Position numbers and translations under genes: made by a program. A stretch of DNA of 64,000 bases from Escherichia phage Eryne: the sequence record PQ529420, one strand, 5' to 3'. Every line of letters begins with the position of its first letter. Within the stretch, counting starts at the first letter, position 1. The notes under the pieces were generated by a model that made no database searches, was not told the origin of the DNA, and saw only the letters and a list, made by a program, of their open reading frames with translations. Shown one piece after another: positions 51,265-53,155 of the stretch.

Positions 51265-51669
51265 TTATTGTAGCTTAAGTGAACTGCGAAGACGTTCCTC
51301 TTGCTGATCACGAATATGTTGTGGAACCTCATGAATTGAATCGTTACCGTGCCTATTCTCCACAACTAAAGAAATAACTTGATAACCAAACTCTTCAGCA
51401 AGAGTTAAATAAGGTTTAAGTTCTTTTTCTGTAGTAGAGGTATTAGAAACAATAATCTTTTCAACACCATACTGCATATATTTTTGTACTTTGACACGAC
51501 ACCATTGGTGTGCTTTATGGATATTCTCTTGTTTCCACTCATACACACCATCTTCAGTGTAGTGGTATTGATCTGCCTCACAAATAGGCCAATGATTTTC
51601 AGAGATAATTTCTGCTACTGTAGATTTACCTGCACCTGAAACACCACGTAAAATGATAAGTTGTTTCAT
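51265..51669 (-). CDS. P-loop kinase (polynucleotide kinase-like)
   Basis: Walker A GVSGAGKST at N-terminus; tightly coupled to RNA ligase gene. Confidence 0.6.
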   Translation of the reverse strand: MKQLIILRGVSGAGKSTVAEIISENHWPICEADQYHYTEDGVYEWKQENIHKAHQWCRVKVQKYMQYGVEKIIVSNTSTTEKELKPYLTLAEEFGYQVISLVVENRHGNDSIHEVPQHIRDQQEERLRSSLKLQ

Positions 51670-52602
51670 TTAGCCTCCAAAGAAGTTTTCTATTTCTTTA
51701 CGTCGCTCTTGTGGATCGAGAGCAGCCCATTGAGCCTTCGTAAATTTATTTCGAAGCCATTCTAGCAAAGTATAATATTCTTCGTCAACAATTTGTTTAG
51801 CATTGTTTGGGTTGTCCCAAATCATATCCCACTTCTTATTGCCACCACGCATAAGGAATTTCTTAGCAAGATAGTATGGTGACTTAATCTTTAAGAGTAA
51901 GTTAAACGGATAGTTTGTTTCACGAACAACAAAGCCTTCGTGTCTACAATGTTTAGACATTTCAACAACATCTGAAAATTTAATCATCGGATAAACTTCA
52001 GGACGTTTAAATTTTGTAATAGATGCAATCCCATCAAGAACACCTTCAGGTAACATGAAACTTGTCCCATCAAGATTTTGAATTCTTGCTCCAATTAAGT
52101 ATGCGCCTGGTTCTTCTTCGACAATATGTGGATCAGAAGGATCACAGATTTCAAAAAGAAAAGTTGCTTTTGCACTTTCTGTCCACTTAATGAAATACTC
52201 TATATCGTCACACTCGGAAACAATACGGTTCTTTGCCATAATTGCGAAATCTGATTCTAGGCTCCCTGTTGTTGATACAACAAGTTTCCCTTTGTACACA
52301 CCTACAGATGCCATAAAACCGTTTACTTTACGGACAGCATCTACAATTTCGTCTGCTGGAAGATCTGTACCATTTTCAAAATGATTAAAGATTTTAGTAA
52401 AAGGCCAAATAACAACATTGTCTTCTGAGTCAACAACCAACCCACGACAATCTAAAAGTCGTTTGTCAACGTTCCACAAGTTATCCCAGAATACATTGTT
52501 TTTGTATTTAAGTACAGCAAGACCAGCATACTCTCCAGATTTAACTTCTTTTTTATGCACTAAACCTTTTGCAATCAGGTCATCACAATTGAACTTAGCC
52601 AC
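51670..52602 (-). CDS. Rnl1-family RNA ligase (T4 RnlA-like)
   Basis: LLDCRGLVVDSE and KVNGFMASV align with T4 Rnl1 ALECRGIMFEMDGE and lysine-adenylation region (K-E-D-G in T4). Confidence 0.6.
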   Translation of the reverse strand: MAKFNCDDLIAKGLVHKKEVKSGEYAGLAVLKYKNNVFWDNLWNVDKRLLDCRGLVVDSEDNVVIWPFTKIFNHFENGTDLPADEIVDAVRKVNGFMASVGVYKGKLVVSTTGSLESDFAIMAKNRIVSECDDIEYFIKWTESAKATFLFEICDPSDPHIVEEEPGAYLIGARIQNLDGTSFMLPEGVLDGIASITKFKRPEVYPMIKFSDVVEMSKHCRHEGFVVRETNYPFNLLLKIKSPYYLAKKFLMRGGNKKWDMIWDNPNNAKQIVDEEYYTLLEWLRNKFTKAQWAALDPQERRKEIENFFGG

Positions 52603-52603
52603 C

Positions 52604-53155
52604 TTAATCTCCTTTGATTATCTTATGATGATCTACAACAATAATATCACGCTTATCCATAATAGAGATGATTTCGTCAAAATGCAAGATTTTCCCGTGT
52701 GCATCCCAACCAACATCCAACATTTTCCCATACAAATGATCAGGGAATGATCCGTGAGAGTGTCCGTGTAGCATGATTGATCCATGCCCTTGTTTATTCC
52801 AGGCAGCCATAGGGTAATGACTTAAGACGAAGAACAGCTTCTGATATTTCACTTCGTCATAATACACAACCTCTCCATACTCTGCAAGCACTTTTCTGTG
52901 TTTACTGTAATCATGGTTCCCAACACAGTAAGTAATATCCCCTTGGAGACGGGAAGCAATCTTACGGGTATCTTCTTCAGTCCCGAAACAGAAGTCCCCA
53001 AGATGGTACATCTTTACTCCTGGTGTTGTGGCACATTTATTCCATGCTTCGATCAGTGCTTCTGTCATATGCTCCATATCTTCCCACGGGCGATATTCAG
53101 GAGCAAACTCTCGGATACGTTTGTGCATAAAATGCAAATCACTTGTAATAAACAT
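52604..53155 (-). CDS. calcineurin-like metallophosphoesterase (putative RNA-repair phosphatase)
   Basis: SDLHF, GDFCFG, GNHD and HGHSH metal-ligand motifs. Confidence 0.7.
   Translation of the reverse strand: MFITSDLHFMHKRIREFAPEYRPWEDMEHMTEALIEAWNKCATTPGVKMYHLGDFCFGTEEDTRKIASRLQGDITYCVGNHDYSKHRKVLAEYGEVVYYDEVKYQKLFFVLSHYPMAAWNKQGHGSIMLHGHSHGSFPDHLYGKMLDVGWDAHGKILHFDEIISIMDKRDIIVVDHHKIIKGD

Follow-up and report, generated by a model that had tools for sequence, protein, structure and literature searches.

A kinase, RNA ligase and metallophosphoesterase gene trio of Escherichia phage Eryne as a probable split heal-and-seal RNA repair pathway

Bacteriophage T4 is still the principal case in which phage RNA repair has been worked out. 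Its Pnkp and Rnl1, which counter the anticodon nuclease PrrC, bring together a phage-encoded 5'-kinase, a 3'-end healing activity and an adenosine triphosphate (ATP)-dependent ligase, and defences that cleave transfer RNA (tRNA), such as PrrC, RloC, PARIS and retron- and OLD-type effectors, are by now known to be common. The bacterial counterparts, the Pnkp/Hen1 of Clostridium thermocellum and the repair complex Pnkp1-Rnl-Hen1, of which Pnkp1 is a part, use a P-loop polynucleotide kinase, a calcineurin-type metallophosphoesterase and an ATP-dependent ligase. Comparative genomics has described RNA repair in phages by sets of kinases, ATP-dependent ligases and phosphoesterases, the last being calcineurin-like on occasion (PMC7824862). 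Escherichia phage Eryne, from which a stretch of 64,000 nucleotides was analysed (sequence record PQ529420; hereafter the window), encodes the same set as the bacterial systems in three consecutive genes, and it is probable, judging from sequence and a structural model, that these genes specify an RNA repair pathway of the heal-and-seal type, split over three proteins. The T4 kinase shares its chain with a DxDxT (HAD-type) phosphatase, whereas in the window a stand-alone kinase is accompanied by a binuclear metallophosphoesterase. The enzyme content is closer to that of bacterial Pnkp than to that of T4 Pnkp and Rnl1.

In the proposed pathway, a cut by a transesterifying ribonuclease would leave RNA ends with a 2',3'-cyclic phosphate and a 5'-OH, the likeliest substrate being a tRNA whose anticodon loop has been cleaved by a nuclease of host defence. 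The kinase would phosphorylate the 5'-OH, the metallophosphoesterase would open and remove the cyclic or 3' phosphate to give a 3'-OH, and the ligase would self-adenylate on K92, pass the AMP to the 5'-phosphate and join the ends. We infer the sequence of these reactions, RNA as their substrate and the part played against defence; the most probable use of the trio, on balance, would be against tRNA-cleaving host defences.

The linkage of the three genes is the strongest evidence for joint action of their products. A set of 80 viral loci was found in IMG/VR via the ligase, with ligases that are 38-96% identical and form 33 clusters at 60% identity. All three genes are present in 59 of these loci, within 3 kilobases (kb) in 45, and the prevailing orders are phosphoesterase-ligase-kinase or kinase-ligase-phosphoesterase, the ligase usually being central. 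A survey of conserved neighbours across the 80 loci found no other family comparably linked; antisense shadow open reading frames (ORFs) aside, the other recurrent neighbours within 4 kb of the ligase are a DNA ligase (41 loci) and genes for nicotinamide adenine dinucleotide (NAD) salvage (24-30 loci). Beyond co-location, kinase and ligase form a single ORF in 11 viral loci, confirmed by Pfam as AAA_33 plus RNA_lig_T4_1 in one of them (L052). Outside viruses, metagenome-assembled genomes of Cardiobacteriaceae (L084, L093, L104, L113) carry a kinase-ligase fusion of about 490 residues with a phage-type phosphoesterase downstream, which adjoins the fusion in three loci and lies about 750 nucleotides away in L113. 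In Leptolyngbyaceae cyanobacteria, a single protein of about 710 residues has the domain order AAA_33, Metallophos (PF00149), RNA_lig_T4_1 (L103:3768-5906, from Leptolyngbya sp. PCC 7375, and about 25 other loci within L085-L116). This cyanobacterial chain has the domain order of bacterial Pnkp but a different ligase, of Rnl1/Trl1 type, and its phosphoesterase domain uses PF00149, unlike the Pfam model matched by the window phosphoesterase. In L103 a gene for RtcB (7508-8689) lies 1.6 kb downstream of the fusion; between the two are a DUF29 gene in the same orientation and a gene for a Pol-beta nucleotidyltransferase in the reverse orientation. The ligase clade as a whole comprises 693 phage records (annotated RNA ligase), Leptolyngbyaceae and Cardiobacteriaceae, and its bacterial members retain the motifs KxNG and DPHI and the residues K248 and R252. 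A first-pass annotation of the window had named the trio an enzyme set for healing and sealing cut tRNAs as three separate polypeptides. The three ORFs were found where it had placed them, on the minus strand (Table 1), and the predicted enzyme set is upheld by invariant motifs, by linkage in 33 ligase lineages, by permuted gene orders and by the fusions.

The same neighbourhoods could be read in terms of DNA: the kinase and phosphoesterase would prepare DNA ends bearing 5'-OH and 3'-phosphate groups for sealing by the nearby DNA ligase, and the part of the Rnl1-like protein would be secondary. The DNA ligase of the 41 loci, which in the window lies 0.7 kb from the kinase, would fit such a role, and the kinase relatives T4 Pnk and mammalian PNKP do act on DNA. 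The healing genes, however, flank the RNA ligase and not the DNA ligase, the fusions are likewise to the RNA ligase, and half of the loci have no DNA ligase. Moreover, the phosphoesterase fits no NCBIfam model, the DNA-ligase-associated phosphoesterase family included, and the cyanobacterial fusion lies near RtcB. DNA end processing as the function of the trio is consequently regarded as very improbable.

The packing of the three genes also favours joint expression. The phosphoesterase and ligase genes are separated by one nucleotide (...GGAGAT TAA g GTG...) and the ligase and kinase genes by none (...GGAGGC TAA ATG...), with the Shine-Dalgarno sequences of ligase and kinase lying within the preceding gene. 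Because of this tight spacing and the ribosome-binding sites inside the preceding gene, it is suggested that the trio is co-expressed. The stop/start overlaps described in the first-pass annotation gave way to abutting genes, although the consecutive head-to-tail arrangement stands; the sole overlap (TAATG) is between the stop of an upstream 120-residue gene and the start of the phosphoesterase. Homologues of the ligase start at the same point as its GTG codon, and phi92 gp096 is equal in length. A scan for promoters and terminators from 46.5 to 57.5 kb gave counts not above those in shuffled sequence, and no transcription unit was definable from it.

The kinase matches Pfam AAA_33 (1.8e-10) and a PHROG family (4.8e-58). 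A profile of 33 sequences has T4 Pnk (3.9e-9, full length) and Pnkp1 (2.2e-8) as its top PDB matches, followed by CthPnk (6.8e-7) and mammalian PNKP (1.8e-5), T4 Pnk being the closest solved relative. In conservation counts over 65 sequences, G9, G14, K15, T17 and D33 are found wherever a sequence covers them, position 16 of the P-loop is S or T, and the lid motif H113-x-V-P is conserved. The best PDB relatives and the fusions to the ligase lead us to propose that this protein is a 5'-OH polynucleotide kinase.

The phosphoesterase matches PHROG 547 (8.5e-55) and Metallophos_2 (4.8e-4), and its family profile matches Aquifex aq_1665 (1xm7) at 7e-24, then GpdQ, YfcE and MJ0936. Residues H8, H11, R22, G53-D54 and G79-N80-H81 are present in all 59 homologues, and D6, H113, G131-H132 and H134 in 58; the aspartate of the GNHD motif is found in 44 of the 59. 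The predicted binuclear metal site (DxH/GD/GNH(D/E)/H/GH/GHxH) is complete and conserved. We propose that the phosphoesterase is the 3'-end healer of the trio, a putative 2',3'-cyclic phosphodiesterase and/or 3'-phosphatase.

The ligase matches Pfam RNA_lig_T4_1 (2.3e-14) and PHROG 562 (1.9e-68). A PDB search with the single sequence gave no match and a family profile was needed; the profile of 25 sequences matches T4 Rnl1 (2c5u) at 1.9e-10. NCBIfam has no named family for either the ligase or the phosphoesterase. Among 74 distinct homologues from the 80 viral loci, the residues R53, K70, K92, N94, G95, E151, D157, H159, E222, G223, K238, K240, Y244, K248 and R252 are invariant, and K248 and R252 are likewise present in 35 of 35 bacterial homologues. 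Motifs I, III, IV and V of the covalent lysine nucleotidyltransferase superfamily are all found, the basic residue of motif Ia being the missing element. The AlphaFold model (predicted local distance difference test score, pLDDT, 88.5) has T4 Rnl1 and the ligase domain of fungal Trl1 (Trl1-LIG) as its closest structures, with a Foldseek E of about 6e-13 for T4 Rnl1 and a template modelling (TM) score of 0.70 for 6n0t. It contains an Rnl1-type N-subdomain and nucleotidyltransferase fold, with equivalents of T4 Rnl1 R54, K75 and F77.

The ligase lacks the Rnl1 C-domain, PF20819; in Pfam terms it consists of PF09511 alone followed by a helical tail of 70 residues, whereas the full-length T4 Rnl1 homologues listed have PF20819 together with PF09511. 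The C-domain of Rnl1 confers tRNA specificity. The adenylyltransferase domain is homologous to that of T4 Rnl1 and has the same catalytic residues; the window ligase differs from T4 Rnl1 in the absence of PF20819, in having KxNG for KEDG, Thr for Lys119 and His for Ile167. Membership of the Rnl1 family, as the first-pass annotation had it, is therefore supported for the nucleotidyltransferase domain, which is homologous, but not in the strict sense, since PF20819 is absent and the ligase is roughly as distant from T4 Rnl1 as from fungal Trl1.

Several observations weigh against the proposed repair pathway. The kinase has no clear equivalents of T4 Pnk R38 and R126, which bind the phosphate of the acceptor and the beta-phosphate of ATP; the position of R38 is occupied by H or F and that of R126 is not conserved. 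R106 (44 of 65 sequences), the invariant R8 and H113-x-V-P may substitute for them. The score of the phosphoesterase lies below the Pfam cutoff, its nearest solved relative, 1xm7, is without known function, and neither the Pnkp1 chain 4xrp_A nor lambda phosphatase was matched by its profile at E <=1. In the ligase, the basic residue of motif Ia (T4 Rnl1 K119, Trl1 K169, Rnl2 R55) is replaced by T112. K119 is essential in T4 Rnl1, and no basic residue occupies this place in any of the 74 phage and 35 bacterial homologues examined; T112 and G113 are present in 74 of 74 phage sequences, T111 in 73 and S110 in 70, and the bacterial homologues read S/T-C/T-S/T-G. Thirteen loci from the clade with the kinase-ligase fusion, which is itself present in 11, have no phosphoesterase within about 6 kb, and within about 4 kb of the L052 fusion Pfam recognised no substitute phosphatase. 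Finally, literature searches yielded no biochemically characterised member of this ligase clade, kinase family or phosphoesterase family.

Some of these points would suit a phosphoesterase that is not a repair enzyme and is merely co-located, degrading a nucleotide second messenger or acting as a protein phosphatase. The solved relative of unknown function and the small-molecule diesterases GpdQ, MJ0936 and YfcE would be compatible with this, as would the fusion clade that has no phosphoesterase nearby. Nevertheless, in 62 of the 80 loci the phosphoesterase is no more than 4 kb away from the ligase, and in 27 no more than 60 nucleotides, in permuted orders, and in the cyanobacterial chain a metallophosphoesterase domain is placed between kinase and ligase. 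A role outside repair is for these reasons considered improbable, and a place in RNA end healing is preferred.

The motif I of the RNA ligase, K-x-N-G, could be taken as a sign of an inactive or unusual enzyme. We reject this reading: the motif is the norm in Trl1 and in MthRnl, and the DNA ligase of African swine fever virus (ASFV) has it as well. In Trl1-LIG, the Asn of KxNG helps to hold the catalytic metal (PMC6379707), and MthRnl also carries KxNG, with an Asn that is dispensable there and in yeast Trl1, other ligases having Asp, His or Met at this position (PMC4797309). Since Trl1 and MthRnl normally have KxNG as their motif I, with an Asn that is non-essential, K-x-N-G is a clade marker of the RNA ligase and not an anomaly. 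The family profile places the invariant K92 on T4 Rnl1 K99 and N94 on D101, and the K, N and G of the motif are found in 74 of 74 phage and 34 of 34 bacterial homologues. K92 is predicted to be the adenylated lysine. The K-x-N-G assignment of the first-pass annotation is thereby confirmed, and the profile alignment of both ligases revealed no catalytic lysine elsewhere with a normal KxDG in the RNA ligase.

The first-pass annotation had also pointed to the same variant in the adjacent DNA ligase. The K-L-N-G-L-R sequence is indeed present there, aligning to KLDG in the Psychromonas ligase and K-R-N-G-V-R in that of ASFV, but a shared origin is not supported. Among 34 homologues of the DNA ligase this position is D in 31 and N in 3, N occurring only in the phi92-like clade; the Asn is a recent, independent D-to-N substitution of this clade, unrelated to the Asn of the RNA ligase.

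In comparisons of deep profiles, the phage ligase clade matches the T4 Rnl1 family at E 6.5e-13 and the fungal Trl1 family at 2.1e-11, while these two families match each other at 5.8e-8. Because the phage clade is closer to T4 Rnl1 and to Trl1 than these are to each other, it is placed between them, and by profile and modelled fold the ligase is a putative sealing enzyme of an Rnl1/Trl1 superclade. With Trl1 it has in common the KxNG motif I and a segment after motif III (E-I-C-D-P-S-D-P-H-I-V versus E-Y-C-D-D-T-F-E-E-H-I-L), in which the invariant H159 is aligned with the histidine of the His-Arg-Arg triad in Trl1 (CthTrl1 H227, R334, R337), where T4 Rnl1 has Ile167. This triad enforces 2'-phosphate specificity in Trl1 (PMC11404444). 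From the common KxNG, the triad histidine and the short helical C-domain, it could be argued that the ligase clade is a prokaryotic and viral sister of Trl1 that prefers or needs 3'-OH,2'-PO4 ends, like the tRNA ligases of fungi and plants. The metallophosphoesterase would then serve solely as a cyclic phosphodiesterase, leaving the 2'-phosphate in place, and the host 2'-phosphotransferase KptA would remove it from the junction. N94 and H159 speak for this possibility, but the Arg pair of Trl1 is out of register in the hhalign alignment, where it stands opposite K247 and L250, the nearest invariant residues, K248 and R252, following one and two positions later. The similarity of the ligase C-domain to that of Trl1 is not significant, lying at noise level, and a co-occurrence search of a phage collection found no KptA/Tpt1 homologues in the phage groups that bear the cassette. 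Further differences are that Trl1 (Rnl6 clade) has a motif Ia Lys, of which the window ligase has none, and is equipped with a 2H cyclic phosphodiesterase and a guanosine triphosphate (GTP)-dependent kinase, whereas the healing enzyme of the cassette is a metallophosphoesterase. Among the Trl1-type systems, that of Mucorales is split into a "sealing-only" ligase and a separate kinase. We consider the Trl1-like specificity unlikely. Were it true, the repaired RNAs would bear a 2'-phosphate mark to be taken off by host KptA/Tpt1, which would provide a natural substrate for bacterial KptA and suggest that the fungal and plant tRNA ligase originated in phages or bacteria. In the phage collection, KptA/Tpt1 homologues occur mainly in jumbo phages of Erwinia, Dickeya, Klebsiella and Serratia, and also in phages of Clostridioides, Bacillus and Listeria.

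Instead of countering defence, the cassette could also serve the RNA of the phage itself, in transcript or tRNA maturation or circularisation, or could act in tail-fibre attachment like T4 gp63. PHROG 562 bears the T4 gp63 label and tRNA arrays are often near the cassette; about a third of 43 diverse loci have tRNA genes no more than 6 kb from the ligase, a proximity that also speaks for the repair pathway. Yet the ligase lacks the T4 Rnl1 C-domain, ARAGORN gave no sign of split or intron-containing tRNAs in the window array, and the linkage with end-healing enzymes points to repair of ends made by a nuclease. Such a processing or assembly role is held to be highly unlikely, and repair remains the preferred reading of the trio. 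In the window, the tRNA array that the first-pass annotation had set next to the cassette is present, but the immediate adjacency is not: it lies 6.3 kb away, past a strand switch and two NAD-salvage genes. Among metagenomic phages, ARAGORN calls within a few kb of the cassette include a tRNA with anticodon UUA, which reads the UAA stop (L034:9183-9255), one with the amber anticodon CUA (L025:11546-11621), one with a four-nucleotide anticodon (L015:270-367) and a transfer-messenger RNA (L052:12189-12591). These unusual genes may point to stop-codon recoding or suppressor use.

Table 1. Coordinates of the cassette genes, their motifs and neighbouring features in the window
Feature	Position	Strand	Description and basis
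Pnk-like P-loop kinase	51265-51669	minus	134 residues; phi92 gp095 homologue
Kinase P-loop, G9-V-S-G-A-G-K15-S-T17	51619-51645	minus	G9, G14, K15 in 64/65, one gap
Kinase D33, predicted general base	51571-51573	minus	versus T4 Pnk D35; 64/65, one gap
ATP-dependent RNA ligase	51670-52602	minus	310 residues, GTG start; phi92 gp096 homologue
Ligase motif I, K92-V-N-G	52318-52329	minus	K92 versus lysine of T4 Rnl1 K99-E-D-G and Trl1 K-A/E-N-G
Ligase motif Ia, S110-T-T-G113, without usual Lys/Arg	52264-52275	minus	T112 versus T4 Rnl1 K119
Ligase motif III, F150-E151, then invariant D157-P-H159-I	52123-52155	minus	E151 versus T4 E159
Ligase motif IV, E222-G223-F	51931-51939	minus	versus T4 E227-G228; invariant
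Ligase motif V, K238-I-K240, and first C-domain helix (Y244, K248, R252)	51847-51891	minus	versus T4 K240/K242
Binuclear metallophosphoesterase (predicted)	52604-53155	minus	183 residues; phi92 gp097 homologue
Phosphoesterase motif I, D6-L-H8	53132-53140	minus	translation and conservation
Phosphoesterase motif III, G79-N-H-D82	52910-52921	minus	translation and conservation
Phosphoesterase motif G131-H-S-H134	52754-52765	minus	translation and conservation
120-residue protein, function unknown	53155-53517	minus	PHROG 839, 3.9e-47
ATP-dependent DNA ligase (context, outside cassette)	49408-50523	minus	Pfam DNA_ligase_A_M 3.1e-11
DNA ligase motif I, K117-L-N-G-L-R	50158-50175	minus	aligned to KLDG of Psychromonas ligase 4d05
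Phosphoribosyl pyrophosphate (PRPP) synthetase and nicotinamide phosphoribosyltransferase (NAD salvage)	about 56650-59300	plus	homology to EmilieFrey, phi92 annotations
tRNA array, 15 genes	59495-62200	plus	ARAGORN

The 120-residue gene upstream of the phosphoesterase was considered as a fourth member of the cassette and rejected, since homologues near the ligase were found in just three loci, two of them from close relatives. The DNA ligase gene is closely followed downstream by two other minus-strand genes, one for a MazG/PRA-PH-like nucleotide pyrophosphohydrolase (48488-49210; 3.2e-7) and one for an RdgC-like recombination-associated protein (47278-48183; Pfam 2.5e-19).

The source of the window is a phi92-like myovirus (Justusliebigvirus, Stephanstirmvirinae), and its positions 49400-53600 are 98-99% identical in nucleotide sequence to phages EmilieFrey (Bas61), inny and phi92. 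The sister phages phi92 (gp095-097) and EmilieFrey (bas61_0242-0244) have the same genes in the same order at about 98% nucleotide identity. In EmilieFrey the trio is annotated as [quoted passage not shown], and in phage Paula the annotation reads "RNA ligase/RNA repair"; these annotations rest on homology only. No biochemical or genetic study of the cassette was found in the literature on phi92, rV5 and Vequintavirinae phages, the BASEL paper does not discuss it, and the intermediate, Trl1-flavoured features of the ligase are not described in the literature searched. The cassette is of a known kind and already annotated, and the present analysis confirms a sensible annotation without introducing a new principle.

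Hundreds of cultured phages, with hosts among Escherichia, Pseudomonas, Vibrio, Campylobacter and Acinetobacter, carry cassettes of this kind, and therapy collections make use of several of these groups. The trio would represent a second heal-and-seal system, compositionally different from that of T4, made up of a kinase on its own, a metallophosphoesterase and a compact ligase that has no Rnl1 C-domain. Its characterisation could give biotechnology a small new RNA ligase and clarify the relationship between T4 Rnl1 and eukaryal Trl1, and it would reveal which defences the phages that carry the cassette escape.

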